NCBI GenBank assembly: GCA_965231215.1
Contig: OZ246423.1
Span: forward strand, 320,001 to 384,000
DNA from: Candidatus Altimarinota bacterium
GTDB lineage: Bacteria > Patescibacteriota > Gracilibacteria > UBA4473
Reading direction: 5' to 3'
DNA: 64,000 bases
Shown here: one piece after another, positions 1 through 17,027 of the stretch
How the letters are laid out: every line of letters starts with the position of its first letter
Numbering within the stretch: position 1 is the first letter of the stretch
Translations under genes and position numbers: made by a program
Notes under the pieces: generated by a model
Database searches by the model: none
What the model saw: the letters and a program-made list of their open reading frames with translations, nothing else
Told to the model about the DNA's origin: nothing

Positions 1-1
1 C

Positions 2-3000
2 TGGCCAAAACTGAAAAAACGAGCTTTAGAGCGTCATAAAAAAGCTATGCTTGGGAATCCTGAAATCTGTTTCACTTTATGCAGGCTCAGCGAGCTTGGT
101 TTTGATATGGGGATGCTTCCTCAATCAAATAAAACAGCCGTACGTTTAAGAAATAATACTAAGTATTTACGGTCAGCCATGGATATGCAAACTATGCTGG
201 GAGAAAGAGAGGCCCCCATGTCGATTACTGATCTTATCGCTTTAGAAGGTAAAGATCCGGTAGTGGTAGAACGGTTTTTACGCCTAAAAGAGGTTGGCAT
301 CGCAACGCTTGACCCCTTTGTCTTAAGGCAAGCCGTAAAAATTGCCAGCGAAGAAGAGGGTACTGAAGATAAACTATGGGCTACCATAGAAGAAATTCGT
401 CGCATCGCCCCTCAAGTAAAAATTAATACTGTTTCTGGAGTCAGAAAGTTTGAGCGTACACCAGACGCTTTAACAGCATTAGAAAGACTGGCACAAATAG
501 ATGTTTCACTAGACTCAACTCTCATTGAAGAAGTTTGTAACTTAGTGTTAAATGTTGAAGAAGCACTCATTGGCTTAGGGCGTTTAGCAACAGTAGCTCC
601 TGGCATTAGGCCAGATCGTTTGGCCGCCGTTACGATTTTAGGAAAATCAGACAATGCTGATTACTTACCAGGTTTAAAAGCGGTTGGATATCCAATAGAC
701 GAAGATCACTTGCAGATCATTATTGATTGTGCTGACGCGCCAGAAAAAGTCTTGAAAGGAATAAAGTATATCAAAGGCCTCATTCCAAACCATGAATTTA
801 GAACACTTTCGTTCTATAAGAGCGAGTTTGACAGGCCTAGTATTGAAGCCGTATTAAAAGCCTCTGGTATGGCTTTGACGGAATTAAATGATGATAATTT
901 AGTAACCGTAATTACGGCTGCCCATAAAAGTGAAACTATTGCTAAACAAAGAAAAACTATTCTAACTATAGCTCCTGATTTTAGATTTGAGTTGAAAATG
1001 GGGGTTCATAACCAAGTAGAATTACCGTTTGATCAATATCTTAAAAGCCAGAACCTTAATATTGGTATTATAGACCATTTATATGGGGAAGATGTCGCGA
1101 CCCGTTTGGCAGCAGTCGAAATTTTGTCTTACGCCAGTTTTGACGATAAAGCAGAAGATGTAGTGAAAATGATTGAGGCACAGGGAGGTCAATTAAGGGG
1201 GTTGATAAGTGATAGTGATTCAGCAGAAAGAGAACAGATTGATTTGATTGATCAAGCTTTCAGCCGTTGTAATCCAAGGCTTAAACAACAATTGCAATTA
1301 TCATTACTCCTGAGTGTTAATCCCGAGCTCAGAGAGGCCATGGCTACCATTACCAGCAGTCCTGAAGCCATAATGGAAGCTCTGACTTTTATTGATAGGC
1401 GTAATGGAAGCGTTGAGTCTATTAAAACCGTTACCAAGGTATATCGAGGAACCGATCATAACGCTGATATTGCTCAGGTATTGTTTGATAGTTCAATTGC
1501 GGCTAATTCTGGTGTTTCGAATTCTTTAACGGTTGCTTCTATAGAGAGTGGGCAACACCATAACACAACGATTGTCGAAATTGATGGCACCCCCATTACA
1601 GAAATTGATCCTGATAGCTTGCAGCCTTTATTAAAAGATAACTTAGTGGCTCGTAATTTTGTAAATGGAACCAGAAAATTAAACATAAAAAGCTTGTCAA
1701 ATAAAGGTTTGCAAATGGTTGTTACTAGTCGCCTAAGAACTTGTATAAACCGCTCACAGGATCCTACTCACTGGCACATGGCTGATATGAGAAACCGAGC
1801 TCAAGCCGTTAGTAAAAACCTTGATCTTTCTGATGGACGGTATCTAGTGCATGCCACACAGACAGTAAACCTACCTCCAATTATGGAGTTGGGCAATCTG
1901 TGCGGTGAGGTGCTTGGTTTAAAGGCAAAAACCGACTCTTATCCTTTTTATGTCGACGGCTACACTACTAAAAGTGGCACTTTTAATAGCACCTACAATG
2001 GTGGTGAAATTAATTTAGTCTTTGGTAATAGTGAAGACTTATCTATTGAGGCAGGTATGCCAGGTATTTCCAAAGGTGGCATGGGCGATAACCACCTTTT
2101 GGTACTGATTGGAATTCCAATCACGAGTCTAAGGGCTATCAAGATAAAAGATGTTAAAAAAGATTTTGAGTTAGTTAAAGCACTAGTAATAGAACGAGGC
2201 TTCTACATTCCTATTTATGACGCTGCCGGTAACTTGTTATTTTCAGCTCAAGACTATGATCAAGCTTTGGCAGACCGAAACGTAAAACCAAATAATCACC
2301 CAACCTATTGGCAGCACATGCTAACTACCGGCTCACAAATGGGGCTTAACCCAGCAGACCAAATTATGCTGCCCTCACCTAATGGACCCGAAAAATACTA
2401 TGCTAAGTGGACAGAAATTACGGATGAAACCCTTTACACCAAGTTAGAAAATGAACGATTTTCTGAAGAGCTATACAGACTAGCTGGTGCCAGAGTACTT
2501 AGTAGTGAACTGGTCAGAGTTGGTACCCGAGTCGCCAAGTCTTCTCGCTGGATTAACGGTTTCACTCCGATTAAGGACGCTAAACAAAAAGCCGAATTTA
2601 ACGCTTTTGCGGTTATGGATATGTGGACAGCCAATTGGGACTTAATTGGCACCGCTGGAAATGTTATGCAATTATTTGATGATCCCGAAGCCATATACCG
2701 GATTGATCACGGTGGGAGCCTCGGTTTTAGGGCTAAAAACCATTCTGGATATAAAGGTCATGGTAGTCCTAATTTTGGACCTGCAGTTCATGAACTTAAA
2801 CCTGGTTCTGCTGCACAGCAATTTGGTAAAGATGGTATGCGACATCGCTATGATGTTTCGGATGAAGCACTAGCGGCTCAAGCCCAGAAATTATTGACAG
2901 ATTTTCCAGATAAAGTTATCAGAGATTTGGCAAACGAGTTCAGAATGCACCGCGAATACAGAGAGCTGGTTACTAAACGCCTGATAGAACGTCGCGATTA

Positions 3001-3025
3001 CATAGCCGAACAACTACTTAAATAA
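2..3025 (+). CDS. Large protein, probably 5'-truncated: helical N-terminus, putative ADP-ribosyltransferase-like middle domain, C-terminal PI3/4-kinase/HipA-like domain
   Basis: Frame is open from position 2 through the ATG at 47. YLVHAT...LPPIMELG resembles an ART H-x-T motif. YYAKW..ENE..MDMWTANWDLIGTAGN..RIDHGGSL match atypical kinase motifs. Confidence 0.55.
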   Translation, partial: WPKLKKRALERHKKAMLGNPEICFTLCRLSELGFDMGMLPQSNKTAVRLRNNTKYLRSAMDMQTMLGEREAPMSITDLIALEGKDPVVVERFLRLKEVGIATLDPFVLRQAVKIASEEEGTEDKLWATIEEIRRIAPQVKINTVSGVRKFERTPDALTALERLAQIDVSLDSTLIEEVCNLVLNVEEALIGLGRLATVAPGIRPDRLAAVTILGKSDNADYLPGLKAVGYPIDEDHLQIIIDCADAPEKVLKGIKYIKGLIPNHEFRTLSFYKSEFDRPSIEAVLKASGMALTELNDDNLVTVITAAHKSETIAKQRKTILTIAPDFRFELKMGVHNQVELPFDQYLKSQNLNIGIIDHLYGEDVATRLAAVEILSYASFDDKAEDVVKMIEAQGGQLRGLISDSDSAEREQIDLIDQAFSRCNPRLKQQLQLSLLLSVNPELREAMATITSSPEAIMEALTFIDRRNGSVESIKTVTKVYRGTDHNADIAQVLFDSSIAANSGVSNSLTVASIESGQHHNTTIVEIDGTPITEIDPDSLQPLLKDNLVARNFVNGTRKLNIKSLSNKGLQMVVTSRLRTCINRSQDPTHWHMADMRNRAQAVSKNLDLSDGRYLVHATQTVNLPPIMELGNLCGEVLGLKAKTDSYPFYVDGYTTKSGTFNSTYNGGEINLVFGNSEDLSIEAGMPGISKGGMGDNHLLVLIGIPITSLRAIKIKDVKKDFELVKALVIERGFYIPIYDAAGNLLFSAQDYDQALADRNVKPNNHPTYWQHMLTTGSQMGLNPADQIMLPSPNGPEKYYAKWTEITDETLYTKLENERFSEELYRLAGARVLSSELVRVGTRVAKSSRWINGFTPIKDAKQKAEFNAFAVMDMWTANWDLIGTAGNVMQLFDDPEAIYRIDHGGSLGFRAKNHSGYKGHGSPNFGPAVHELKPGSAAQQFGKDGMRHRYDVSDEALAAQAQKLLTDFPDKVIRDLANEFRMHREYRELVTKRLIERRDYIAEQLLK

Positions 3026-3041
3026 TTTAAACTTTCATTAC

Positions 3042-4265
3042 ATGAAAACCCCAACTATTATCGATCACTACGGTGACATTACGAATCCTGAATCTATGGA
3101 TATTGCCCCAGAAGCAATAGTAAACGCCGCTAACACTGGCTTGAGAGGTGGTGGTGGAGTTGATGGAGCTATTCACCGTGCGGCAGGGTACGAAGCATTA
3201 CAGGCTGAATGTGCTACCGTTCGTGAAGGCTTACCAAACCAACAGCTAGCTGTGGGAGAAGCGGTTGTTACCGGAGCTTGTGCACTTACCCAATTTGGCA
3301 TTAGTTATATTATTCATACGGTTGGTCCAGACTGCAGACTGAATGAACAAGCTGCACGAAAAGCCGAATTGCTGACTAATGCTTATACCAATAGCTTAAA
3401 ACAAGCCGTTAACCGCGGAGCAAAAACTATAGCCATCCCCGGCATTAGTACTGGTGTATATGGATATGATGCCGATGAAGCGGAAGATGTGTCACGTGCC
3501 GCTATAGAACAATTTTTTGCTAACGGGCATGATAAAGGCATTTTGCAAGAAGTTCACCGTGTGTTTTTTCCTGGATTTAAAAAAGAAGTTTTAGCCGTAG
3601 ATGACAGATCGATTGAAGTCGCCTTACACCCGCAGCTAGGTGCCGACACCATTACCATTATGATGGGAGGCCTAAACGGTCATGTTGATGGCTGGATGCA
3701 CAAAAATACAAAAGTTGCAGAGTTGTTACGTCGACAGGCTAATACCGCTGTTGTAAGAGCAGGTGGACCACAGGCAGAGGGCGGTGTTGAAGATCCACAC
3801 ATCATGCAGCAAGCTCGAGCACTGATTAAAAAAAGTATCGCTCAGGCAGAAGCTTTAACGGGTAAACCCGCCAGTGAACTTACCTTTCAGGTTTCCGGTT
3901 ATTCGGCTGGTGGTTCTGGCATGGCGGCGGTAGCGCATGAATTTCCACAAATTAAAAAAATGTTGTTGGTTGCCCCCTCGGTAAATGCCGGAGATAAAAA
4001 TGTTAAGCAAGGGCTTATGAAATTTAGAGGAAATGTGGCCATTACGGTTGGAAAAGAAGATGAGCTGGCAAAGTATGCTGAAAAGTTAATCGCTCATACT
4101 GAAGGAAGAACTCTCCCAATTCACTTTCAAGAACTTTCTAACGTGGACCACAGATTTACTGGGGTTCGTGGAGGTGAACTATTCTCCGCCTCATTTTTAT
4201 GGGGACTCGATAACCAAGGAGAGCATTTAGAAAGCAGCCAGCGTGGCATTAAGCTCTACAATTAG
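3042..4265 (+). CDS. Macrodomain (MacroD/YmdB-like ADP-ribose hydrolase) fused to an alpha/beta-hydrolase
   Basis: GDIT, AIVNAANTGLRGGGGVDGAIHRAAG, IIHTVGP, PGISTGVYG; C-terminal GYSAGG nucleophile elbow and a late DH. Confidence 0.85.
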   Translation: MKTPTIIDHYGDITNPESMDIAPEAIVNAANTGLRGGGGVDGAIHRAAGYEALQAECATVREGLPNQQLAVGEAVVTGACALTQFGISYIIHTVGPDCRLNEQAARKAELLTNAYTNSLKQAVNRGAKTIAIPGISTGVYGYDADEAEDVSRAAIEQFFANGHDKGILQEVHRVFFPGFKKEVLAVDDRSIEVALHPQLGADTITIMMGGLNGHVDGWMHKNTKVAELLRRQANTAVVRAGGPQAEGGVEDPHIMQQARALIKKSIAQAEALTGKPASELTFQVSGYSAGGSGMAAVAHEFPQIKKMLLVAPSVNAGDKNVKQGLMKFRGNVAITVGKEDELAKYAEKLIAHTEGRTLPIHFQELSNVDHRFTGVRGGELFSASFLWGLDNQGEHLESSQRGIKLYN

Positions 4266-4717
4266 ATGGAGATAGGTGAGCCATTATTGCATCCAAAAAA
4301 TCCACGAATGGAATTTCGTGTCGAAGATAATACTCGATTCGATACAGCAGGTGGCTAATGCCGTTATTAATGGTATAAAAACAAGAATTTGCTTTCACAT
4401 TACAGTTGGATTTGAAGAAGCTTTTGTTCCAGCAGATGAAAATACTCTTTTTCAAGCACCAAAATTTAATACCCCGTTTAAGTTAAATACGGTGCATTAA
4501 AGAAAAGCTGCTCTTAGCTCACCTCCACCCCAAGTGCGTGGGAATACGACCCTAAAAGTACTTTTACAGATATCTAAAGGCCCAAGCACGCCAAAAATCC
4601 GACATTACCTTCTACATAGGTATGTGGGAATTGGCTGTACTTAAAGTATCAATTGGCTGCGAACGATTGACCATATTAGAACCTTTTACCAAAACTTGGA
4701 GTAATCATTAAGAACTC

Positions 4718-5776
4718 CTAAAAACCCAATCTTTCTAGCTCTGCTAAGTGTGGTTTTAGATCTTGATGATCAGGTATATAATTTCTGTCGATTAGAGGGT
4801 TTTGTCGACATCTTGGATCAGCTTCTCTTCGGTTATATTCTGTCCAATAATCTTCAACTATCTCTGGGTACTTGGTTTTTAGTATTTGAAGGAAGCGAAC
4901 CATCGTTGGTAGTGCTATCTTATTTCGCTCAATATTTTGCTTGTCAGCTTGTTCTTGATAGTCATCAGCATTGTAATCGAGCCTTGGCCAGTCTCGTTCA
5001 GTAAGAGCTAATCTTAACCCCATTACGATATCTCCAATTGATGAAGCTCCATTTGATAAATGAAAGTCTAAAATATTAAATCCTTGTTCTGGATCGTACA
5101 TAAAATTGGAAGGTTTTGGGTCAATAGTTATTCCATTTTCGTGTAACTCCAGCACCGTATCAATAAGCTGAGTAATATGTTCATCAGAGTACTCGATTGG
5201 CTCTTCTGGAGGAATTTGTGTTACATCTCTTCCAGACAGAAGTTCCATTATTACACAACTATCATCAAAAGAATAAGCTACAAGCTGTGCTGTATGCTCA
5301 ATCCCCTTTGCCTGTCTAAGTGGTTTCGTTTCAAAATTTGCTTGTGTCAAATTTCGAGAAAATTTAGCGGCGTATTTCTTTCCATTGACCTCAATTATGT
5401 ATGCACTTCCGTTGCTCCCAGACCCTAGGTATTCTGGAAGAGCTTTGGGGTCATCTGTACTGGCTAAATTTTGCTTTAATCGTTCAATTACAGGCCTAAA
5501 GGAGGTATTATAAAGCTCCGCGTTAGCATGTCGAAATTCCAACTCATCTTTGGGGGCATTTCGAATAGCCTCAGTATATTTTTTGCGGTTTTCTGTGATG
5601 ACTGTAGCTAGTTCTTCTGGAACATCTGATAACTCATCTAGATTTGTAATTTTGGAAAGCCTCGCACTATTGCCGAGCAATAATTTTTGTTCATCAGAAA
5701 ATTCTTTAACACCAGTATCAGCAAAAAATTCAGCTTGAGCCTGGAGTTCTTCGGGAGACTTTTGTCTTATTTTCAT
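4718..5776 (-). CDS. Protein kinase-like protein
   Basis: YLGSGSNGSAY glycine loop, YAAKF, IMELL, IDPKPSNF catalytic loop, ILDF. Start moved to ATG 5776, which follows TGnTATAAT by 6 nt. Confidence 0.75.
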   Translation of the reverse strand: MKIRQKSPEELQAQAEFFADTGVKEFSDEQKLLLGNSARLSKITNLDELSDVPEELATVITENRKKYTEAIRNAPKDELEFRHANAELYNTSFRPVIERLKQNLASTDDPKALPEYLGSGSNGSAYIIEVNGKKYAAKFSRNLTQANFETKPLRQAKGIEHTAQLVAYSFDDSCVIMELLSGRDVTQIPPEEPIEYSDEHITQLIDTVLELHENGITIDPKPSNFMYDPEQGFNILDFHLSNGASSIGDIVMGLRLALTERDWPRLDYNADDYQEQADKQNIERNKIALPTMVRFLQILKTKYPEIVEDYWTEYNRREADPRCRQNPLIDRNYIPDHQDLKPHLAELERLGF

Positions 5777-5812
5777 TAGTATATTATAGCATTTTTTTAA
5801 AACAAAAACAAT

Positions 5813-5845
5813 ATGCACTAAGTAGCTGCAATCTACTTAGTGTAT
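5813..5845 (-). terminator. Hairpin, probable terminator of the minus-strand gene ending at 5870
   Basis: CACTAAGTAG (5816-5825) / CTACTTAGTG (5833-5842) 10-bp stem, followed on the minus strand by a T-rich run. Confidence 0.5.
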
Positions 5846-5869
5846 TAGAGCCTAATAAAGCAAAAAATG

Positions 5870-6166
5870 TTAGTTTACTAAGTTATACTCTTCCATCTCA
5901 CCATACACTTCCGAAATTTCAGTATTGAGTTGTTTTATATACTCTTTGGCTACCTGTGAAAAAAGATCTGCTTCAACATTTTCAAGTTCAATTTTAAACA
6001 CACCATCTTTTAATAGAGTTATTAGTTGATTGAATGCATTCTTTACCATAATTGGTTTGTCTTCACAGATTGGAATTCTAACTTGAGTGTCATCATCGTA
6101 TACTATTACGATTACTCTTTTATCATCAATATTTTCGACAGTTGCTTTAAGCGTTTTCATTACCAT
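5870..6166 (-). CDS. Small acidic hypothetical protein coupled to the ATPase remnant
   Basis: ORF overlaps the stop of the upstream ATPase fragment; protein-like composition. Confidence 0.55.
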   Translation of the reverse strand: MVMKTLKATVENIDDKRVIVIVYDDDTQVRIPICEDKPIMVKNAFNQLITLLKDGVFKIELENVEADLFSQVAKEYIKQLNTEISEVYGEMEEYNLVN

Positions 6167-6460
6167 AGATTTTACTTCTTTCTCCAAATGCTTCAACACC
6201 ACCTTCAAGTGTTTTCATGCTGATCTTTTTCCAGTCAATTTTTAACGATTCATCTTCTGTATTAACAAGACTGTTTGAAAAAGGATTTCCAATAAAAGTC
6301 TTATAACCTTCTGGACCATGACTTCTATATACCGAGTTATATGGTAAGGTTCTTACAGCAATATTTGCATCATGAGTTGAGATAAAAATTTTTTTACCTG
6401 CTTTGGCTAGCTCTTTGATTATTGGAGCGATAATTTTATAGAATACCTCATTCCCGAAGA
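6147..6460 (-). pseudogene. C-terminal remnant of an ABC-type ATPase
   Basis: GNE..KKIFISTHDANIAV H-loop is present; Walker A and B are absent; the upstream part of the listed ORF is antisense to other fragments. Confidence 0.65.
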
Positions 6461-6469
6461 CAAAAGGTA

Positions 6470-6700
6470 TATATCCTTCAACTTTTCTCGAACAGAAAAC
6501 GGATAAAAGGTCGGACAAGTGTCCAATCACTTTATTTACTTGATAAAGACCCCCTGCACGTATGGAGGCTTTCGGTATTGGTTCATATGTCCAAAATGCA
6601 CAAACAGGTGCTGTATCGTTTATAAATTGCATGGAGGTTTCGCGTGTAGGAAATGCCAAAATCTGTGTTATCAACTTCAAAAAGAGTGGGGCTACTTCAA
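6470..6700 (+). pseudogene. Zn-ribbon protein fragment of a type seen in integrative elements
   Basis: TPCTYGGFRYWFICPKC...FACRKCQNLCY; in-frame TAA at 6504 just upstream. Confidence 0.55.
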
Positions 6701-6915
6701 GCTGTTTGGGAAGCTGTTCTACAAAAGGAAATATTGCACTCAACACAAAACTTATTAGAACGCCAAAAGACTGTATTCAGTATGTAATTGTGCACGAATT
6801 ATGCCATCTTTTGGAACATAACCACAGCAAGGAGTTTTACAGACTCCAACAAAAGCATTTCCCACTTTGGGAAAAAGCAAAAAAGAAACTGGAGATGTTC
6901 AGTTTCGAGATTTGA
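6700..6915 (+). pseudogene. C-terminal fragment of an M48/YgjP (DUF45) metallopeptidase-like protein
   Basis: GSCSTKGNIALNTKLI..CIQYVIVHELCHLLEHNHSKEF (HExxH); the N-terminal half is missing. Confidence 0.75.
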
Positions 6916-6961
6916 TATTTAGTCCTCTGTAAAAATAACATTTTTTGACTATACTCTAAAT

Positions 6962-8290
6962 ATGTTAAATCAATCTTTTTCTGCAGAAAATTTTCGTAAA
7001 ATATTCGATATCGAAAATAGAAAAGGAGTTAATCTTGATGTTTTTTTCCCAAAAACAAGAAAGTTCACCGAAAAAATAAAATCATGTAATGAAGAAATAA
7101 GAAAAGCTAAAAGGCTAAAAAAGACAAAGGATGAAATAAAAAAATTGTATGAACAAAAGGCAGGATTTAGAAAAAAGAGAGAAACAGAATTAGATAAAGA
7201 ATTAGAAAAAGTATCAAAAAAATGTTTAGAAAAAAACTTCAGAATAAAACTCAATCAAGTTTTAATACCCAGCAAAAAGACTCTTTATACAGTACAAGAT
7301 CTCCCAAAATATTATTTTGCAGTTAAGCAAATTCAGCATAATCTTTCCCGATTATATAAAGTGAAGCAATCTGATAGAAGTGCCATTATGAGTAACTTTT
7401 TAACATTACTTAATGATGGTTTTCCTAAAGTTGTTATAAGGACTGATATTAGCGAATGCTACGAAAGTATTCCTCATGAGAAACTGCTAAAGAAAATAGA
7501 TGAGGATGGCTTGCTTGCATTTTTTTCCAAGAAAATAATTAAACAACTTCTATTTGATTACAAAAAAGCAGCAAAATCAAAAAAAGGTGTGCCACGAGGC
7601 ATCGGAGTCAGTGCCTCATTATCGGAGATTTATTTAAGAAAAATAGACATGGAAATTAAGAATATTCCTGGGCTCATTTACTACGCAAGATATGTTGATG
7701 ATATTGTAGCAATATTTTGCCCATCTAATGGGGAAACCGAAGACGAATATGGACAAAGCAAATTAAAATTAGTTAAAGAAAGCATTAAAAGTGCAGGATT
7801 AAAAGTGAATACAAAAAAAACAAAGTGTTTTCATTTGCTTGAAAACGACTATGAGACTGTAGATATAGATTATTTAGGATACGCTATAGAACTTAAATCA
7901 GGAGATCTCACGATTTCTTTAACAAAAAATAAAATTGATAAATATAAAAAGAAAATCGATTTAATATTTGATGCATATAAATTCAATAAGATAAATGACG
8001 AAAAATCCGCTAGAAAAATATTCGTTAAAAGAGTTCGTTTTATAACAGGGAACACTCGATTAAAAAATAACAAGAAAAATATATTAGTTGGAATTTATTA
8101 CTCTAATAAGCATTTATCTTCTTTGAAATCTCTAAAAATATTGGATGAATACTTAGAAAGAAAAGTCAGTACGTTACCAGATACTCTAAAAGATAGAATC
8201 AAAGACTATAAATTTTCAACAGGGTTTGAAACAAGACGTTTCTCTCCATTTACCAGTACCCAATTAAAGAATATAGTTTCTATTTTTTAA
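6962..8290 (+). CDS. drt3a: Defence-associated reverse transcriptase Drt3a (UG3)
   Basis: N-terminal MLNQSFSAENFRKIFD.ENRKG; RT motifs RTDISECYESI, GVPRGIGVS, YARYVDD, YLGY; tandem with a second RT. Confidence 0.9.
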   Translation: MLNQSFSAENFRKIFDIENRKGVNLDVFFPKTRKFTEKIKSCNEEIRKAKRLKKTKDEIKKLYEQKAGFRKKRETELDKELEKVSKKCLEKNFRIKLNQVLIPSKKTLYTVQDLPKYYFAVKQIQHNLSRLYKVKQSDRSAIMSNFLTLLNDGFPKVVIRTDISECYESIPHEKLLKKIDEDGLLAFFSKKIIKQLLFDYKKAAKSKKGVPRGIGVSASLSEIYLRKIDMEIKNIPGLIYYARYVDDIVAIFCPSNGETEDEYGQSKLKLVKESIKSAGLKVNTKKTKCFHLLENDYETVDIDYLGYAIELKSGDLTISLTKNKIDKYKKKIDLIFDAYKFNKINDEKSARKIFVKRVRFITGNTRLKNNKKNILVGIYYSNKHLSSLKSLKILDEYLERKVSTLPDTLKDRIKDYKFSTGFETRRFSPFTSTQLKNIVSIF

Positions 8291-8300
8291 GGCATTTAGA

Positions 8301-10301
8301 ATGAAGAAAAAAAGAAAAATTTCCATAAAATACACCAAGGCAAGAACGATTTTATCTGATGTTTTGCCTTATGAAATTCCTGTAATTTTTTCCAACAGAC
8401 ATTTCTATCGTTTTCTAAATAATTTTGAGCCGAACATTTCAAAAAAGTTGGTATCAATAGAAAAAAACAAAGAAAACAAAGTAGCTGCTGAATTAGCAAA
8501 TCTTATTTTTGGTGAAGATCATACAACTATTCCTTTTCTCTATAATATTACGCATAAAGGGGATGATTTCCGACAATTAACGCTGATTCACCCAAGAAAC
8601 CAAGTCGCTGTGATTGATTTTTACGAAGAATATAAAGACCTTCTTCTCTACTATTGCTCAATAAGCCCTTTTTCTATTAGATATCCAGAAAGAGTTGCTA
8701 AACTAACTTATTTTAGAGATAAGGTTCATCAAGAAAACCTTTCTACTGAACATGAACACGAACTTCTTGAAGAAAGGAATCGAGAATATGAAAATCTAAA
8801 AACTTTTTTTGTATACAAGAACTACAGCAATATTCACAGATTTTACGAATCATTTAAATATCATAGGTGTGAAAAAAAATATAATCGTCTTGTTAAATTT
8901 GATATACAAAAGTGTTTTGAAAGTATTTATACACATTCAATCTGTTGGGCAACTTTAAATAAAAAAATAGTAAAAGATAACCTAGGAAATAATAAAACGG
9001 AAAATACATTTGGAGGTAAATTTGATAGGTTAATGCAAAATTTAAATTACTCTGAAACAAATGGTATCGTTATTGGACCAGAGTTTTCCAGGATATTTTC
9101 AGAAATAATTCTTCAAAAAATAGATAAAGATGTATTAGCCGCACTTGAAGAGTCTACCAATCTAAAACATAAAGTTGATTTTGAAATATTTCGTTACGTT
9201 GATGATTACTTTCTTTTTTACAATAAAGAAGAAGATAGAGAGATAATTATGACAATATTTAAGCTGAATCTGAAAGAATATAAACTTCAGATTAGCAGAG
9301 AGAAGACTGAGATCTACGATAAACCAATTATTACATTGATCACTATAGCAAAACAGCAAATTAGGGATTTATTAAATGAATATCTTTCTTTTTCCTTAGA
9401 TGAAAAAGATGATCCAAATAAAAAAATATCCATATATGTAAGTTCAAATGCTCTTATTACTAAATTCAAAACAATACTAAAGCAAACAGAAGTTGAATAT
9501 AAAGACATTTTGAATTACACGCTGGCTATTATAGACCGTAAAATCGTTAAGATTTTGAAAGATTTTAAAGAAAATAAATTTGAAGAAAAAAAGTTAATAA
9601 ATGCTTTGTTTGAGATTCTTGAATTTACATTTTTTGTTTACTCTGTTTTCCCTAAAGTAAATACCACAGTTAAGTTATGCCACATTTTAAGCAAAATAAC
9701 AAACTTCATAAGTAAGAATCCTAAGAAAATTAATATTGATCATGCGCACCTCTTGAAAAAAAAGATATTTGATGAAGCTTATTTGGTCTTAAAAAAGAAT
9801 AAAACTAAATCACATATTCAAATCGAAACGCTTTATTTATTGATTGTTTTACAAGAGCTCGGAAAAGAATATCTCTTAGATCAAGAAGTTTTACGAGATT
9901 ACTTCAATCCAGATCAAAAAAAGAATTGGGAAGAGGTTGATTTAGAATATTTTTCAATAGTCGTTTTACTTTTCTACATTAAAAACAAAAAGAGGTATGA
10001 AGACCTAAAGAATCAATTAAGAGTTATCATTTTAGAAAAATTTAAGAAATCTAATGTGACAGATAGACACAAAAAATCAGAACTAGTATTACTGCTTTTA
10101 GATCTCCTTAGTTGTCCATACTTAGAGGAATCGTTTAAAAAAGAATTATTAGAACTTAGAAAAATAACGAATAATCAAACAAAAGAGCAAATAATCGCTT
10201 GGGGAAAGAAAGAAAAAGAGAATAGATATTGGTTTGTGAAATGGGAAGGATTTAACTTAGAAAAAGAATTAGATGCAAAGAAAGGTCAGGAAGTTTACTA
10301 A
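8301..10301 (+). CDS. drt3b: Defence-associated reverse transcriptase Drt3b (UG8)
   Basis: LSDVLPYEIPVIFSN, KFDIQKCFESIYTHSICWA, ETNGIVIGPEFSRIFSE, FRYVDDY, long helical C-terminus. Confidence 0.9.
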   Translation: MKKKRKISIKYTKARTILSDVLPYEIPVIFSNRHFYRFLNNFEPNISKKLVSIEKNKENKVAAELANLIFGEDHTTIPFLYNITHKGDDFRQLTLIHPRNQVAVIDFYEEYKDLLLYYCSISPFSIRYPERVAKLTYFRDKVHQENLSTEHEHELLEERNREYENLKTFFVYKNYSNIHRFYESFKYHRCEKKYNRLVKFDIQKCFESIYTHSICWATLNKKIVKDNLGNNKTENTFGGKFDRLMQNLNYSETNGIVIGPEFSRIFSEIILQKIDKDVLAALEESTNLKHKVDFEIFRYVDDYFLFYNKEEDREIIMTIFKLNLKEYKLQISREKTEIYDKPIITLITIAKQQIRDLLNEYLSFSLDEKDDPNKKISIYVSSNALITKFKTILKQTEVEYKDILNYTLAIIDRKIVKILKDFKENKFEEKKLINALFEILEFTFFVYSVFPKVNTTVKLCHILSKITNFISKNPKKINIDHAHLLKKKIFDEAYLVLKKNKTKSHIQIETLYLLIVLQELGKEYLLDQEVLRDYFNPDQKKNWEEVDLEYFSIVVLLFYIKNKKRYEDLKNQLRVIILEKFKKSNVTDRHKKSELVLLLLDLLSCPYLEESFKKELLELRKITNNQTKEQIIAWGKKEKENRYWFVKWEGFNLEKELDAKKGQEVY

Positions 10302-10304
10302 ATA

Positions 10305-10437
10305 AGATATTGGAATATAATAGGTTTGTTCGACTCCGTCTAAACTCCAATTCACACACAAGTCGACGTTTCCTTCTTTTGTTTAAAACAATGAAAGATT
10401 GAACAATAAAGTAGCAGGGACGGGCTACTTTTTTTTG
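10305..10437 (+). ncRNA. Candidate DRT3 non-coding RNA with CACACACA template tract (ends approximate)
   Basis: Lies directly after drt3b. CACACACA at 10353-10360; complementary segments ATTGGA/TCCAAT and TCGACT/AGTCGA; hairpin 10375-10398; ends in a terminator. Confidence 0.75.
10408..10436 (+). terminator. Intrinsic terminator closing the DRT3 locus
   Basis: AAAGTAGC-N8-GCTACTTT stem running into a T8 tract (10429-10436). Confidence 0.8.
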
Positions 10438-10566
10438 TAAAATTTTTTTTTGGGAATAAGAAAAATATCACAATGTAATTTCCACTTAGTGCCCCTTCGT
10501 CCTAGGTACACGGGTCTGTCTGCCTTCTTTTCCGCCGATCCAATCCCACAAAGCATACAGAAAAAA

Positions 10567-10650
10567 CGGGTCTAGAACCCTTAGAATATTTCTGTACGTG
10601 GATCACTATGATGCATAGTGTACGTAATGGCTGACTACTCGGGTCTAGAA
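10567..10650. repeat. 11-bp direct repeat CGGGTCTAGAA flanking a long hairpin
   Basis: Copies at 10567-10577 and 10640-10650; partial CGGGTCT at 10511; hairpin 10595-10626. Confidence 0.7.
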
Positions 10651-10691
10651 ACAAAAATGAGACAAATAAGACAGTATAAAAAAGGAGTGTC

Positions 10692-10910
10692 TCAAACGTG
10701 GAATCGTTTATCAGTCTTAGATTTTTCCAGTCTGCGTTTCTGAAATTCTCTTACCGCTTCTTCGGGAAAGATCCAACCCGCTGAAGTTCTTTGGGCTGGA
10801 ATAAGTTTATCGCTTATAATACGTTGGATAAAACTACGCGAGACGTTCAGGATTCGCTGAACATCTTTTGAACCAACCAGTTTTACGCCATTAAAATAAT
10901 CTTTCTCCAT
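10692..10910 (-). CDS. Small HTH DNA-binding protein (excisionase/MerR-like HTH_17)
   Basis: SKDVQRILNVSRSFIQRII..GWIF pattern, 72 aa. Confidence 0.75.
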   Translation of the reverse strand: MEKDYFNGVKLVGSKDVQRILNVSRSFIQRIISDKLIPAQRTSAGWIFPEEAVREFQKRRLEKSKTDKRFHV

Positions 10911-10951
10911 ACGATGGTTTTTGTCTTGCCATTGTATGTTGAATCTGGCTT

Positions 10952-10994
10952 AATATCAGTGTGCAATTGCATACTAATTTTATAACCTGATATT
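10952..10994. promoter_or_regulatory. Palindromic operator candidate between divergent genes
   Basis: AGTGTGCAATTGCATACT (10958-10975, one mismatched pair) plus outer inverted repeat AATATCAG (10952-10959) / CTGATATT (10987-10994). Confidence 0.5.
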
Positions 10995-10999
10995 TTCTC

Positions 11000-12064
11000 A
11001 TGAATAACAAAGAAAAACCGAAATCAAAAACGAGAATATGGCGCTGGATTGGCCTCTATATCATCATTTCATTTCTGGCAGGACTAACCATCGCCTTACC
11101 ACCAGTCGGAGGTCTTTTGAGTATTTGGTTTATCTGGAGTTGGAATAAGCAAGATAAAAAGACTAAAGAATTGATAGGTAATATTAAATCACACCCTTGG
11201 CGTATAGCCTTTACGGTTTTAGTGGCTTTAGCCATGTTTGCAAAATCCAGCTCAATGTTACTTGGGACTTTAGTGATACTTTTACTAATTTGGCTGTTTC
11301 CAAATACAGAAAAAGAAACTTTGGTAGAAAGATTAAAAGGCTTCAAATCACATAAAGTAAAAACAGGAGTGTCCACCTTCTTGCTACTAGTAGGAGGAGT
11401 AATGACCATCGGTCTTCATAGCTCAGAAAAACTGATCCAAGAGCAGAAAGAATTTATTGAGTCATATCCAACCCCTGTAATCCAAGTAGAGAGCATTCCC
11501 CATCAAGGAGCGAATACTGAGTATGATCTGACTTTTACGGTAAAAGATACAGAAAGCGTTAGGATCAATGGAAAACCGATAGAAGTTCTTGAAGGAAATA
11601 TTGACTATAAAGTGTCTCTAAACCAACCGACAACGAACTTAAAGATCGAAGCTAAAAATCAGCATAAGCAGGCAACAAAAGATATTATTATCCAAAGAGA
11701 TAAAACCGAAGCTGAATTAATAGCTGAGGAAGAAGAAAGAAAAAGACAAGCTGAACTGGCTAAACAAAAAGCGGAAGCCGAAAGGCTCGTAGAACTAAAC
11801 AGCGTCAGTGATTCTGAAGCTTACGTCATGGCCCAAGGTTTTGTGAAGGCTATGCTGAAGTCTCCTAAAACAGCTGATTTCCCCTTTCTAGATTACAGTC
11901 ATAGAAACTTAGGCGATGGGAAATGGATTATTCAATCTTATGTGGATTCACAAAACGGTTTCGGAGCGATGATACGAACTCAATATCAAGTAGAGATGCA
12001 ATTTAACGGCGGTGATTGGGCAGAACAAAGAAATTGGACTCTACTAGATATATCCACTCAGTAG
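11000..12064 (+). CDS. Membrane protein with Ig-like, coiled-coil and C-terminal extracellular domains
   Basis: Several N-terminal TM helices, beta-rich segment, EEEERKRQAE coil, LKSPKTADF..VDSQNGFGAMIR domain common in prophage lipoproteins. Confidence 0.6.
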   Translation: MNNKEKPKSKTRIWRWIGLYIIISFLAGLTIALPPVGGLLSIWFIWSWNKQDKKTKELIGNIKSHPWRIAFTVLVALAMFAKSSSMLLGTLVILLLIWLFPNTEKETLVERLKGFKSHKVKTGVSTFLLLVGGVMTIGLHSSEKLIQEQKEFIESYPTPVIQVESIPHQGANTEYDLTFTVKDTESVRINGKPIEVLEGNIDYKVSLNQPTTNLKIEAKNQHKQATKDIIIQRDKTEAELIAEEEERKRQAELAKQKAEAERLVELNSVSDSEAYVMAQGFVKAMLKSPKTADFPFLDYSHRNLGDGKWIIQSYVDSQNGFGAMIRTQYQVEMQFNGGDWAEQRNWTLLDISTQ

Positions 12065-12073
12065 AAAATTTAA

Positions 12074-12113
12074 TTGACACAAATCTCCAATACCTATACC
12101 CTAGGTATAGGTA
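12074..12113 (+). promoter_or_regulatory. Sigma70 promoter overlapped by a CsoR-type operator
   Basis: TTGACA 12074-12079, 17 bp, TACCCT; perfect inverted repeat TACCTATACC-CTA-GGTATAGGTA 12091-12113 upstream of csoR. Confidence 0.75.
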
Positions 12114-12125
12114 TAAAAAATTGTC

Positions 12126-12407
12126 ATGATTATTCCAGAATATAAGAAGCAACTACAAACAGCCCTTAAAAAGGTGCAAGGAACTTTGACAAAAGTGGAT
12201 AAAATGGTTGAATCTGAAGAATACTGCCCAAAAACAGTCCAAATGATTAGTGCCGCCGAAGGTTTACTTCGAGGAGCAAAGCTTAAGATACTTGAAAACC
12301 ACCTGCAAACCTGTGGACATAAGAAAATGGCTTCAGCAAATGAAGAAGATCGGGCTGATTTTGCTAAAGAGCTCATTAAAATTTTAGATGTCTCATCTCG
12401 TAAATAA
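12126..12407 (+). CDS. csoR: CsoR/RcnR metal-sensing repressor
   Basis: LKKVQG..EEYC..Q...LENHLQTC (C..H..C fingerprint). Confidence 0.85.
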   Translation: MIIPEYKKQLQTALKKVQGTLTKVDKMVESEEYCPKTVQMISAAEGLLRGAKLKILENHLQTCGHKKMASANEEDRADFAKELIKILDVSSRK

Positions 12408-12408
12408 A

Positions 12409-12954
12409 ATGGAACATAATCACCACCATCACGATCTCCCTGAAAAAAGCCTAAAAACTTACTGGCCACTCATTTTGGTCTTGCTTTTTGTAATTGGTGG
12501 AACGCTTCACTTTGGCTGGCTTCGAGGTGATTACAATCTGTGGATGACGGATTTTAGTGATTCATTTGATCCCCGAAATTGGATGACTGATTTTATGGGA
12601 CTGTTTTTCTTGTTTTTTGCTTTTTTCAAACTGCTAGATGTAAAAGCATTTGCAGATGCCTATCGAAGTTACGATATCCCGACTAAACTTTGGCCAACTT
12701 GGGGTTACATTTACCCCTTTGTTGAACTTGCTTTTGCTATGCTCCTGCTTCACAGAATTGAATTATTTTGGACAAACATCGCCATTGTCATCGTACTCAG
12801 TGTGAGCATTATTGGCGTGATTCAAAGTGTTATGAAGAAACGTAAAATTCAATGTGCCTGTCTTGGAACAGGGTTCAATCTGCCAATGAGTCAGGTAACT
12901 ATTATTGAAGATGGAGCTATGATTCTCATGGCCGTACTTATGCTCGTCCTATAG
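12409..12954 (+). CDS. MauE/DoxX-like membrane protein, heavy-metal associated
   Basis: His-rich N-terminus, FFKLLDVKAFADAYRSYD, YPFVEL, IQCACLG, IIED. Confidence 0.8.
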   Translation: MEHNHHHHDLPEKSLKTYWPLILVLLFVIGGTLHFGWLRGDYNLWMTDFSDSFDPRNWMTDFMGLFFLFFAFFKLLDVKAFADAYRSYDIPTKLWPTWGYIYPFVELAFAMLLLHRIELFWTNIAIVIVLSVSIIGVIQSVMKKRKIQCACLGTGFNLPMSQVTIIEDGAMILMAVLMLVL

Positions 12955-12992
12955 ACATAAACCTAAGAAACCTTTATTCTTCTAATCGAAAG

Positions 12993-13382
12993 ATGAAAAC
13001 AATTTTAGCCCTAACCGCTCTCTCCTCGAAGCTCACCATGCTTCTGTGTGTGAGTTGTATGGGGTTATTTAGTGTTGTTCAAGATTCTTTCGCGGCCGAT
13101 ATGCCACCTTGTCATCAAGAAGTAGTACAAGAAGATGAAGCCAAAGAACCTTGTGAAGTGTGTGAAACGGCTCTTGAAGCGTGGGAAGAAAATGCAGTGG
13201 CTACTTCTGATATTCAGACGGTCAAAGTTACAGAACTCACTTTTGTAACCGATAATGTTCTTGAAAATTTTGTACTAGAACTAAAACCTTTAGAAGGTGT
13301 TTACCAAGCTTATTATCCTCCGCCACAAGTTTTATTGAAGGCGGTTACTCCAAATACCAAGACCATAGTGTTGTTGTCTTAG
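12993..13382 (+). CDS. Hypothetical Cys/His-motif protein
   Basis: N-terminal hydrophobic segment, MPPCH, CEVC, C-terminal YPPP; sits in the metal cluster. Confidence 0.55.
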   Translation: MKTILALTALSSKLTMLLCVSCMGLFSVVQDSFAADMPPCHQEVVQEDEAKEPCEVCETALEAWEENAVATSDIQTVKVTELTFVTDNVLENFVLELKPLEGVYQAYYPPPQVLLKAVTPNTKTIVLLS

Positions 13383-13391
13383 TTTTTTTCC

Positions 13392-13427
13392 CTCTTACGA
13401 TCTTTTTTGATTCGTAAGAGTATTTTT
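13392..13427 (+). terminator. Hairpin, terminator or attenuator within the metal cluster
   Basis: CTCTTACGA (13392-13400) / TCGTAAGAG (13412-13420) followed by TATTTTT. Confidence 0.5.
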
Positions 13428-13494
13428 GTGTCTGAAAGTATGTTTCTTTCAGTCTTTCTTTTATTTGTTTATTTATTTTTAATTATAAAATTTC

Positions 13495-13884
13495 ATGAAA
13501 AAATCACTTATCGCTTTCGTTCTCCTTACTTCTTTAACACTTGTTGGTTGTGGACAAAAACCAATGACTGATGCAGATATGGCCGCTAAGTATGGACTCT
13601 CCCTTGAAGAGTACCAAGAACAAAAAGAAGCCGCTGCTCGAATGAATATGAGCATTGAAGATCATCTAAACATGGGACACGGAGGTGATCATGGAAGCAC
13701 AGACCAAGAAGATGTGCCAGAGGGATATCACATGATGCCTGATGGAACCATGATGAAAAACGAAGATATGAATCATGATATGGATGAAAAGTCAGATTCA
13801 GACATGGATTCACATGAAAAAGCCGCTGCTGATATGGGAATGACTCTCGAAGAACATGAAGCCGCTGGACACCCTGGTCACTAA
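13495..13884 (+). CDS. His/Met-rich lipoprotein, putative Cu/Ag chaperone
   Basis: Lipobox LVGC; YHMMPDGTMM; repeated AAxxxx(S/T)(L/I)Ex units. Confidence 0.7.
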   Translation: MKKSLIAFVLLTSLTLVGCGQKPMTDADMAAKYGLSLEEYQEQKEAAARMNMSIEDHLNMGHGGDHGSTDQEDVPEGYHMMPDGTMMKNEDMNHDMDEKSDSDMDSHEKAAADMGMTLEEHEAAGHPGH

Positions 13885-13895
13885 ACTGCTTAATT

Positions 13896-15608
13896 ATGAA
13901 AAAATTAATATACCAAAAACGATATTTAATCCTTGGGGTTCTGGGGATAATAGTTTTAGTAGGACTTGGTAGTTGGTATTTCAACTCAAATGATTCTTCC
14001 AAAAATACTTTCTCTAAAAAAGAGAATGTTTGGGAAACGGTTGAAGTAAAAAACGCCAAAGATTTTTCTTCAATTAAAATCCCTGCCAAAGCTAAATCGA
14101 ATCAATTTGCCGTTATTTCTCCAAGGAGAACTGGAATTATTCAAGATTTATTGGTGGATATAGGCGATGAAGTCTATAAAGGGCAAACTATCGGATCAAT
14201 GCTCCCAGAGGGAGTAGAAGGGCAAAGTTCTGCTGCTATTAATGAAGCAAGTGCTAGACTTCAAAAAGCACGAGCCGAACTTGCCAACTCTAAGGGAGTG
14301 GCTGTTGATGCTGTTTCTGTCGCCACTAAACAATGGAGGGAAAGCAACCTACAATCAACAACTCAATCAAACTTAGGAGCAGAAACTCAAAAACAACTAG
14401 CCGAAAAGAAATCCGAAGCCATTTTAGTAGCGACTCAGGCCTGGGAAAACACAAAGCTGGTACTCTTTGGTAATGGAGCGAATAGAGGGTCTCGTGACGT
14501 TCGTGGTAACTTCTCGGACTCAATACAAGAGACGAAAGTAGAAAACCTAGCGAATGAAATACAGCGCATGGAAGAATCTGGTCAGTGGAATAATCCTGAT
14601 CGGATTGTGGAACACCTATCGCATCTTGAGAGCTTTCTGGTTCAGGCAGAAACTTTGTATAAAAATGCTCGAGAAGGCAGTGGGGTTACCGCTTCTCAAA
14701 TCAGTAGTAATCTAAGTACTATTCAGGCTCAACAGCTCCGAGTTACACAAGTGAAGCAATCAATTTTAGCTCTAGAAGAAAAAAGTCAGCGTTTTTCCTC
14801 AGTTCAAGCCGAGCGTGAAGCTGGAGCAGAACGATCTCGTGAAGTGTTGGACTTAGTACAGTCACAGCAAGACTTGAGCATTACCCAAGCGGAAAAGAAT
14901 GTAGAAGTCGCTTTAGCGAATTACAATGCAGCTCTAGTGAAAGCTGGACATCAATCTATCACTTCGCCTTTTAGTGGAGTTATTACGGCTCGAATGACTG
15001 AAGTAGGGCAAGCCGTTACGATTAATATGCCACTCTTTTATCTTGAAGGAGCTCAAACTGCTAGAAGTCAGGAAGCTTTATCTGAAATTCATTTCAGCTT
15101 ACCTGAGTCATGGCGAAAAAAAGTTTCTGTTGGAGACATGGTCACACTCAAAACCGTTGAAGGAGAGTCTTTCGAAGGAACTATTTTTCGTCTTAGTGAA
15201 CATATCAACTTAGAAAGCAATAGCATTATGGCTACCGCTACGGCTTTTGAAAAAACCTATGAAGAAGTTGTTATCGAAGACGAAACTGAAGAAGAAACAT
15301 CTACGGAGGAATCGCAAGAAAAAGAAATGAAGGAGATTGTAACTCCAGTGGATTTTGAACACGGACAAAGTTTGTTTGTCTATGTGACGGCTTCTGACAG
15401 TAATATCTTTACGGTTCCAACTTTGGCTTTGAAAAAACGAAGTAACAATTACTTCCTTTGGAAAATGGAGGAAGAAAATCCTATTCAACTTGAGGTTGAA
15501 ATAATGGCTGAAGACGGAGAATTCTCTCAAGTCTTCACCAAACAATTAAAAACAGGTGATTCTATTATTAGCAATCCATCGGTTTCTTTATTTAAACAAT
15601 CATCATGA
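13896..15608 (+). CDS. RND membrane-fusion (adaptor) protein
   Basis: N-terminal TM, lipoyl-like halves (ISPRRTGII..VDIGDEV; ITSPFSGVI), long coiled coil, VPTLAL. Confidence 0.8.
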   Translation: MKKLIYQKRYLILGVLGIIVLVGLGSWYFNSNDSSKNTFSKKENVWETVEVKNAKDFSSIKIPAKAKSNQFAVISPRRTGIIQDLLVDIGDEVYKGQTIGSMLPEGVEGQSSAAINEASARLQKARAELANSKGVAVDAVSVATKQWRESNLQSTTQSNLGAETQKQLAEKKSEAILVATQAWENTKLVLFGNGANRGSRDVRGNFSDSIQETKVENLANEIQRMEESGQWNNPDRIVEHLSHLESFLVQAETLYKNAREGSGVTASQISSNLSTIQAQQLRVTQVKQSILALEEKSQRFSSVQAEREAGAERSREVLDLVQSQQDLSITQAEKNVEVALANYNAALVKAGHQSITSPFSGVITARMTEVGQAVTINMPLFYLEGAQTARSQEALSEIHFSLPESWRKKVSVGDMVTLKTVEGESFEGTIFRLSEHINLESNSIMATATAFEKTYEEVVIEDETEEETSTEESQEKEMKEIVTPVDFEHGQSLFVYVTASDSNIFTVPTLALKKRSNNYFLWKMEEENPIQLEVEIMAEDGEFSQVFTKQLKTGDSIISNPSVSLFKQSS

Positions 15609-16111
15609 AAAAATTACTATTATTACTTATTCTTACCGCTGTATTCATCACTGGATGTAGCCAGCAAAAAACCACGTCCACCCAAGAACTTGGGGGACAA
15701 ATTCAAGCTCAAGATGGTTTACTCTACGACTTTGGCAGTATCGACATCAATGGAGGGATTGTTTCTAAAACTTTCCAATTCAAAAATACAGACACCAAAC
15801 CTTTAGCCATTTATGAAGCTACAACTTCTTGTGGGTGTACTATGGGAGAAATCAAAGTTGGAGCAAAAACTTATGGGCCGTTTGGAATGCACAACCAAAC
15901 CAAGCAGACCATTGAAGTGCCCGCTCAAAGTGACTTCAGTGTCACTATTTCTTACGATCCCTTATTTCATGGGCCAACTGATTTAGGGGAAAGACAAAGA
16001 ACATTGTTCCTCTTTTCTAGTGCTGAAGTCGATGGAAAAGTTGTCAGAAATTACCAAGGAAAACCAAATTTCACCGAAATCAGTGTTCGGGGGAATGTGA
16101 TTAAAAACTAA
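15605..16111 (+). CDS. DUF1573-like Ig-fold lipoprotein
   Basis: Lipobox ITGC; YDFGSI..FKN..TTSCGCT; GMH and FHGP motifs. Confidence 0.75.
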   Translation: MKKLLLLLILTAVFITGCSQQKTTSTQELGGQIQAQDGLLYDFGSIDINGGIVSKTFQFKNTDTKPLAIYEATTSCGCTMGEIKVGAKTYGPFGMHNQTKQTIEVPAQSDFSVTISYDPLFHGPTDLGERQRTLFLFSSAEVDGKVVRNYQGKPNFTEISVRGNVIKN

Positions 16112-16138
16112 ATATTCTACATTTCTAATTTTAAACCT

Positions 16139-17017: not shown

Positions 17018-17027
17018 AGAATAAATT

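Follow-up and report, generated by a model that had tools for sequence, protein, structure and literature searches.

The stretch of DNA analyzed here (the window) comprises 64,000 nucleotides (nt) of contig OZ246423.1 from Candidatus Altimarinota bacterium, and its positions 6962 to 10441 hold an intact DRT3 system, composed of the reverse transcriptase (RT) genes drt3a and drt3b followed by a noncoding RNA (ncRNA; 10325 to 10441), all three on the plus strand and in that order. The drt3a open reading frame (ORF; 6962 to 8290) encodes a UG3-type class 2 RT of 442 amino acids, assigned with PADLOC, Pfam, and its translation; the protein matches the PADLOC Drt3a profile PDLC03768 over its full length (residues 1 to 442; E = 1.4e-107) and Pfam RVT_1 (E = 1.1e-20), and its YVDD motif lies at residues 244 to 247 (window 7691 to 7702). 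The drt3b ORF (8301 to 10301) encodes a UG8-type class 1 RT of 666 amino acids, assigned with PADLOC and a homolog alignment; it matches PADLOC Drt3b (PDLC03784; E = 1.2e-210), again over its full length (residues 1 to 666), as well as Pfam RVT_1, and shares 50 to 60% identity with many full-length homologs. Both reading frames are open. The initial annotation, which was made from the DNA letters alone, had called this locus a complete DRT3 system with two YVDD-bearing RTs, and the PADLOC and Pfam matches and the motif positions bear this out: Drt3a, Drt3b, the gene order, and a structured RNA with a conserved ACACAC, by which DRT3 membership is judged, are all present. The standard code fits (table 11 covers 93% of the window); alternative genetic codes with TGA, TAG, or TAA as sense codons were tried and rejected, as they gave no lengthening of frames that would suggest recoding.

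DRT3, an antiphage system with its UG3 and UG8 RTs plus an ncRNA, was reportedly defined by Gao and coworkers in 2020 along with Mestre and coworkers in 2022. To our knowledge, no earlier system had been shown to use a protein as part of the template for DNA synthesis, and we know of studies of its RNA only for E. coli. The window Drt3b carries the motifs PYE (residues 23 to 25, including E25), GPEFSR (259 to 264, including R264), and YVDD (299 to 302) and ends in EVY (Y666). Across 32 Drt3b homologs, residues Y299, V300, D301, D302, G259, P260, E261, S263, R264, and Y666 are invariant, and E25 is conserved at 90% or more. Wang et al. 2026 (PMC13174585) showed that DRT3b needs no nucleic acid template to make poly(dCdA), with Y666 serving for priming and E22 and R241 as gating residues, and that ACACAC templates the synthesis of poly(dTdG) by DRT3a, in agreement with what the initial annotation had stated about poly(GT) and poly(AC) products. 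Reviews of Deng et al. 2026 (PMC13434031, PMC13213688, and PMC13314766) describe a 6:6:6 particle with a 130-nt RNA in which ACACAC occupies positions 108 to 113, and they give the gating residues as E26 and R253. Two E. coli loci appear, from their residue numbers, to correspond to these two characterized systems: L093, with E26 and R253 in Drt3b, and L104, with E22, R241, and a YVDD motif at 276 (Y276), the annotated product of L104 having 679 amino acids versus 667 in the paper. The E25 and R264 motifs of the window protein align with E26 and R253 of L093 in a pairwise alignment and with E22 and R241 of L104 by motif. As read from the protein sequence, the residues that would serve protein-templated poly(dCdA) synthesis, the Glu gate (E25), the Arg switch (R264), and the C-terminal priming Tyr (Y666), are therefore all in place.

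The ncRNA gene was located by a covariance model, R1, whose match at 10325 to 10441 on the plus strand scored 81.3 bits (E = 2.4e-16), a value to be read with the fact that the window is one of the 26 sequences from which R1 was built. In the whole 1.33-Mb genome this is the only strong match, the next best reaching 22.1 bits. The RNA likely starts at about 10328 and includes the U tract, which ends at about 10437, for a predicted length of roughly 110 nt. Near its 5′ end lies the helix P1, whose 5′ arm (10330 to 10335, TCGAC plus T10335) and 3′ arm (10361 to 10366, A10361 plus GTCGA) were defined with RNAalifold and by covariation and close the template loop. In this loop, the ACACAC template (10354 to 10359), part of the CA tract CACACACA (10353 to 10360), is predicted to be single stranded. 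Directly 3′ of the P1 5′ arm stands the pseudoknot 5′ strand CCGTCT (10336 to 10341), which pairs with the pseudoknot 3′ strand GGACGG (10418 to 10423). P1 is followed by the P2 hairpin (10371 to 10402; core helix of 10375 to 10383 with 10390 to 10398), found in both the minimum free energy (MFE) fold and the RNAalifold structure, and by the P3 terminator hairpin (10408 to 10437), which a terminator scan identified and which has a stem of 10408 to 10415 with 10424 to 10431, a loop of 10416 to 10423, and then the U tract. The GGACGG strand is located in the P3 loop, so that 2 nt of the loop are unpaired, 6 are paired, and 0 nt are left before the stem; by our own reasoning, this would be the geometry of a classical hairpin-type pseudoknot. 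The pseudoknot begins 0 to 1 nt past the P1 5′ arm, and P1 resumes 1 to 2 nt past the CA tract. ACACAC lies 52 nt from the drt3b stop codon and about 26 nt downstream of the predicted start, and P1, P2, and P3 account for about 78 nt on its 3′ side. The further hairpin and the terminator noted in the initial annotation do follow the CA tract, the terminator-like hairpin lying at 10408 to 10431 with a T run behind it. That annotation had called the RNA unannotated; at a permissive threshold, Rfam returned zero matches at 10302 to 10441 and, over 6000 to 12000, only chance-level snoRNA and miRNA matches (E = 1.7 to 6.5) far below the gathering scores.

To assess conservation, genome contigs were queried with an alignment of 32 Drt3b homologs, which yielded 273 relatives, the best 80 of which (L002 to L081) were analyzed; a single-protein query of the same contigs gave 199 pattern matches and no relatives. 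The drt3b stop codon was readable in 79 of these loci, the 80th (L074) running off its contig. ACACAC was found 4 to 131 nt past the stop in all 79 loci, and within 75 nt of it in 76 of them, so the CA tract, whose conservation among homologs the initial annotation had made a test of its reading, is indeed conserved in this set. When the flanks were placed in register on ACACAC, they showed a common plan. A MAFFT alignment of the window with 25 loci (A2; 26 sequences), in which ACACAC is invariant, gave P1, P2, and P3 with RNAalifold, and 24 of the 25 pairs were changed on both sides. P1 was paired in 91.5% of cases in A2 and 94.4% in 76 sequences, with changes on both sides at all 5 pairs; in P2, 11 of the 12 pairs were changed on both sides (RNAalifold, A2); and P3 was paired in 96.6% in A2 and 97.3% in the 76-row model alignment (A4), with all 8 pairs changing on both sides.

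R1 was built from A2 without the pseudoknot. It matched 75 of the 80 loci at an E value of ≤0.0065, including 50 of the 55 that had not gone into model building, and three more at E values of 0.017 to 0.05, for a total of 78 of 80. At an E value of ≤1, there were 12 further matches; nine of these covered terminators on the minus strand, and the other three lay elsewhere. R1 gave no match at L062, and L074 is cut by the contig end. Locus L062 (3955 to 4100) is the sole complete locus of the 80 lacking an R1 match; it has ACACACAC 45 nt past the stop, with flanks that look different. Another observation concerns L063 (4547 to 4601), where the drt3b frame runs 54 nt beyond the end of the protein match, covering P1 and the pseudoknot strand, with ACACAC 4 nt past the stop; this extension may reflect a lost stop codon or a sequencing error.

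The complementarity underlying the pseudoknot was first noticed by eye and through a search locus by locus. Its strands covary: CCGTCT/GGACGG occurs in the window and many other loci, and CAGTCC/GGACTG, CCGCTCA/TGAGCGG, CCGACA/TGTCGG, TTCGCTT/AAGCGAA, CTGCC/GGCAG, and ACCAATCA/TGATTGGT were found elsewhere. The pseudoknot helix was paired in 85.7% of cases in A2, with four of its pairs showing changes on both sides. When the pseudoknot is included, pairing in A2 extends to 89.5% of the cells, versus 75.3% (standard deviation, 0.8) in shuffles, none of 500 of which reached 89.5%, and the structure slid by 1 to 3 columns was only 34 to 48% paired. A4 offers an alignment that was not fitted to the pseudoknot, P1 to P3 being fitted to the model there; in it, the pseudoknot was paired in 83.2%, with two-sided changes at 6 of its 7 pairs; pair 13/171, for instance, is CG in 33 rows and UA in 20, whereas pair 17/166 is UA in 27, CG in 14, and UG in 14. 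In 47 of the 79 loci, the 12 nt that follow P1 can form a helix of 6 bp or more with the terminator region; the shuffled expectation was 12.0 such loci, and none of 200 shuffles gave more than 22. In the automated search for helices in each locus, 19 of the 79 loci failed the position filter, mostly by greedy choice of unrelated longer matches.

The nearest relative of the window, a metagenome contig (L088), encodes a Drt3b that is 90% identical and aligns with window positions 7808 to 10435 at 90.4% identity, the homology stopping right past the terminator. In this relative, no change affects P1, the pseudoknot, or P3, and P2 carries the compensatory change T10375C with A10398G. The RNA is kept together with the genes, and its P2 change is compensatory, which argues for selection on the RNA. 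The distance from the drt3b stop to P1 is 28 nt in both the window and L088, and this spacer holds a promoter-like site (10294 to 10321, plus strand) with a predicted −35 element TTTACT (10294 to 10299), a 16-nt gap, and a −10 element TATAAT (10316 to 10321). Both elements are unchanged in L088, and the site is the best match to the consensus between 6400 and 11100 (10 of 12 positions); promoter-like sites across the region are no more numerous than in shuffles. From it, transcription is predicted to start near 10328, just 5′ of P1.

The loci that apparently represent the studied E. coli systems are arranged differently. The characterized systems share with the window the order of drt3a, drt3b, and ncRNA, the YVDD in both RTs, and an invariant ACACAC in a loop; their gating and priming residues (E22, R241, and Y666 in Wang et al. 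and E26 and R253 in the reviews of Deng et al.) correspond to E25, R264, and Y666 of the window. The window Drt3b is 33% identical to that of the L093 type. ACACAC is found 124 nt (L093) and 91 nt (L104) past the stop, with the terminator shortly after, and this layout with the template near the 3′ end also occurs in Vibrio, Acetobacter, Novosphingobium, and Enterobacter plasmids and in the E. coli loci L105 and L106; R1 gave no significant match at L093, L104, or other loci of this layout. An E. coli-type ncRNA, with ACACAC about 100 nt or more from the 5′ end and a short 3′ tail, is not what the window encodes: its template is near the 5′ end and is followed by the P1 3′ arm, P2, and P3. This template-first layout is common to 78 of the 80 closest Drt3b loci and recurs in the E. 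coli loci L091 and L092 (in an integrase-linked island), on a Bacteroides finegoldii plasmid (L098), and in Zymomonas (L099). At L091, whose Drt3b is 42% identical to that of the window, P1 reads AGCGC/GCGCT and the pseudoknot TCAGGC/GCCTGA, with ACACAC 42 nt past the stop. The R1 matches at L091/L092 and L098 are weak (E = 0.035 to 0.12 with filters off). A local hairpin immediately 5′ of the template is present in many homologs, and L091/L092 and L098 carry a linker hairpin there; the window has none. We know of no experiments on the L091/L092/L098 lineage. As judged from these comparisons, there are at least two RNA layouts, which follow the Drt3b clades, and the loci that apparently match both studied systems carry the one that the window lacks.

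Several further observations were made on the distribution of DRT3. E. coli alone has at least four Drt3b lineages in different islands (with an integrase and a DEAD-box helicase or in P4-like satellites with psu and ogr/Delta), and among L091 to L093 and L104 to L106, ACACAC stands 42, 91, 124, or 234 nt past the stop, so that both layouts occur in one species. When the two layouts were considered as possible circular permutations of one another, a few motif resemblances were seen, such as CGCTCAA in L093 and CCCGTCCAAAGG in L102. On the metagenome contig L089, whose Drt3b is distant (33% identity), stretches that contain CACACACA lie upstream (2405 to 2436, minus strand) as well as downstream (4563 to 4659, plus strand), which recalls the “Terrabacteria” arrangement of Mestre et al. 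(PMC9226505).

In telomerase RNA, the template loop is bounded by helices plus a pseudoknot, an arrangement alike in concept. DRT9 and DRT10 likewise have a short template in a structured RNA, which a class 2 UG RT copies repeatedly to yield tandem-repeat DNA, and Wang et al. place the DRT3 template “analogously” to theirs (PMC13174585). Their RTs belong to other groups (the window Drt3a scores an E value of 1.4e-29 on RT_UG17 versus 1.4e-107 on Drt3a), and DRT3, unlike DRT9 and DRT10, needs a second, protein-templated RT.

We propose the following arrangement, in which the helices and parts were computed here, and the functions assigned to ACACAC (as template) and to the Glu, Arg, and Tyr residues of Drt3b come from the literature. 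P1 (10330 to 10335 with 10361 to 10366) would close a loop that presents ACACAC single stranded; the first nucleotides of this loop, CCGTCT (10336 to 10341), would pair with GGACGG (10418 to 10423) in the P3 loop; and this pseudoknot would anchor the template loop, on its 5′ side, to the RNA's 3′ end, with P2 between P1 and P3. By analogy with the E. coli systems, Drt3a would bind the ncRNA and copy ACACAC repeatedly into poly(dTdG). From the anatomy, P1 and the pseudoknot may hold both ends of the template region and help to set the template boundaries.

The host genome is a single 1.33-Mb contig (99.3% complete), and the 60 relatives searched have 0.7 to 2.0 Mb. Ribosomal proteins uL30 and bL9, the absence of which is a hallmark of the candidate phyla radiation (CPR), were not found in the host genome and were both found in control genomes; together with the genome sizes, this supports the CPR-like nature of the host supposed in the initial annotation. 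The cassette has a G+C content of 27 to 31%, versus about 40% around it, and the 60 relatives contain no full-length Drt3b (best other match, E = 5e-39, to part of the profile only); on these two grounds of composition and distribution, we regard the cassette as horizontally acquired. Searches of the host genome found nothing matching RecC, and for RecB, AddA, and AddB no match passed the cutoff, the best recB match being a 1,057-amino-acid UvrD-like frame (genome positions 748031 to 750175) with 135 bits versus a cutoff of 696. In E. coli, the DRT3 product is limited by RecBCD according to Wang et al. (PMC13174585); given the host results, this control may not apply here.

Taken together, we give a probability of roughly 85% to the reading that positions 6962 to 10441 are an intact, horizontally acquired DRT3 cassette with an ncRNA of about 110 nt, in which a P1-closed loop presents ACACAC and a CCGTCT/GGACGG pseudoknot is formed. 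Several points weigh against it. The 80 loci are the best of 273 and hence biased to the clade of the window, and the structure was derived from the same, related sequences on which the shuffle and slide controls were run, which favors those controls. The transcript, its ends, and its promoter are predictions; five sequencing runs from three studies contain this DNA in full or in part, and none of the five is recorded as RNA. The single-sequence fold of 10302 to 10440 (−24.4 kcal/mol; z = −0.47) was equaled by 53 of 200 shuffles, the MFE fold favors a nonconserved ATTGGA/TCCAAT helix, and the window's own 6-bp pseudoknot helix was reached by 15% of the shuffles of its 5′ segment; because the fold of this single sequence is no better than those of shuffles and its own helix has a 15% chance frequency, the proposed structure rests on the comparison among loci. 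Covariation also cannot distinguish a pseudoknot within a single RNA from pairing of separate copies, and the E. coli trigger logic, in which RecBCD limits the product and phage Gam acts as the trigger, may not apply in this host. The ATTGGA/TCCAAT helix figures in the fold of the initial annotation, an H-type pseudoknot in which it (10309 to 10314 with 10346 to 10351) interleaves with TCGACT/AGTCGA (10330 to 10335 with 10361 to 10366) to frame the CA tract CACACACA. These segments lie exactly at the positions given there, and both 6-bp helices exist. Among 2,000 dinucleotide shuffles of 10302 to 10370, 36% had at least one perfect 6-bp helix, 14% had at least two, and 1.65% had an interleaved pair, which makes the two-helix pattern somewhat unusual and not decisive. 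The ATTGGA/TCCAAT helix, besides being used by the MFE fold, would occupy the place of the local hairpin that many homologs have just 5′ of the template. In L088, however, its segments read ATTTCA and TCTAAC, with three of the six pairs lost without compensation while the other helices are all kept. Since the gap from the stop to P1 is only 1 to 12 nt in most homologs, these have no counterpart of ATTGGA; in the window, ATTGGA falls in the spacer of the predicted promoter and, with a start near 10328, would lie outside the RNA; and the helix would bury the linker beside CCGTCT, which the conserved pseudoknot needs. Of that fold, TCGACT/AGTCGA thus survives as the conserved, covarying P1, and the idea of a pseudoknotted RNA survives with it, but covariation identifies the loop of the terminator hairpin as the true partner of the template loop; framing by ATTGGA/TCCAAT has become very improbable.

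Two other explanations accept the same helices. CCGTCT and GGACGG could pair in trans between neighboring ncRNA copies and so help to build a higher-order particle like the 6:6:6 assembly of E. coli; besides the inability of covariation to separate cis from trans, a P3 loop with 2 unpaired, 6 paired, and 0 remaining nt would suit any incoming strand. We consider this unlikely, as the E. coli structure belongs to the other RNA layout, DRT3b hexamerizes without nucleic acid according to Wang et al. (PMC13174585), and cis pairing is the simplest arrangement because both strands lie on one RNA with long flexible connectors. The cassette could instead be a silent or decaying import, with genes intact and the RNA or the system not working in this host. 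A G+C content of 27 to 28%, versus approximately 40% for the host, a YgjP-like gene fragment (117 amino acids) directly upstream, the lack of DRT3 in the searched host relatives, and the finding of no canonical RecBCD or AddAB are in keeping with such a state. The full length of both ORFs, the presence of all catalytic and gating residues, and the intactness of every RNA helix speak against it, and we hold it to be slightly less probable still than pairing in trans.

The surroundings of the cassette include the YgjP-like fragment, a kinase-like ORF, a macro-domain protein, an HTH_17 protein, an efflux cluster, and a ParB-methylase fusion; no tRNA gene was found within window positions 1 to 20000. 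The fragment (6562 to 6915) is an ORF of 117 amino acids that matches only positions 143 to 205 of 207, the C-terminal part, of the YgjP-like metallopeptidase domain, and it probably represents what is left of a gene, at the left boundary of the low-G+C cassette. Just upstream of the cassette, positions 47 to 4265 encode a 992-amino-acid ORF with no Pfam match and then a protein of 407 amino acids with an N-terminal Macro domain (E = 2.1e-33), a pair that could be another defense pair. Directly downstream, a 72-amino-acid HTH_17 (excisionase-type) DNA-binding protein is encoded on the minus strand (10692 to 10910), the homology with L088 ending before it. Farther along are genes for an HlyD-like adaptor, a DUF1573 protein, a cation-efflux (CDF) protein, and a 1,038-amino-acid AcrB/RND transporter (E = 3.6e-236) at 13896 to 20144, an RND pump being unexpected in a CPR-like genome of 1.3 Mb, and, at 20979 to 22274, a ParB N-terminal domain fused to an N6/N4 DNA methylase, a kind of fusion that mobile elements commonly carry.

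The DRT3 system, its CA motif, and the template role of this motif are already known. The initial annotation overstated the novelty of the RNA: in Mestre et al. 2022 (PMC9226505), group-specific conserved structures are predicted downstream of UG8, and an exposed CACACA-like motif is reported there as globally conserved in groups 1 to 17, at a distance from the RT end that “varies greatly” and read as a binding site, not as a template. Wang et al. 2026 (PMC13174585) include a covariance model that spans 41 close relatives of EcoDRT3. No paper listed in a full-text search that did not extend to Deng et al. 2026 or to any supplements describes a DRT3 pseudoknot, the listed ones concerning the RNAs of DRT2 and DRT10. 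An explicit, covariation-backed model of a template-first RNA class with a terminator-loop pseudoknot may be new relative to the works compared, which did not include Supplementary Figures S11 and S12 of Mestre et al. or the paper of Deng et al., and a DRT3 system in a CPR-like host without canonical RecBCD may be new as well.

The locus adds DRT3, as an imported cassette, to the repertoire of a tiny-genome, CPR-like bacterium, and the RNA of the large clade to which it belongs is laid out unlike those of the E. coli loci that apparently match the studied RNAs. P1 and the terminator-loop pseudoknot provide a precise, testable model of template framing in which CCGTCT/GGACGG is a target for mutagenesis, and the compact RNA, predicted at about 110 nt, would be suited to structural work. 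More tentatively, and with odds that we place somewhat below even, DRT3 systems other than those of the studied E. coli lineages might for the most part use this distinct ncRNA, with a template loop locked by a closing stem and a terminator-loop pseudoknot as a telomerase-like boundary device, perhaps acting between copies. If so, the window would be a compact instance, hairpin-less and self-promoted, in a CPR-like host that has no canonical RecBCD or AddAB, and the absence of these enzymes would imply that the DNA product is controlled differently there.

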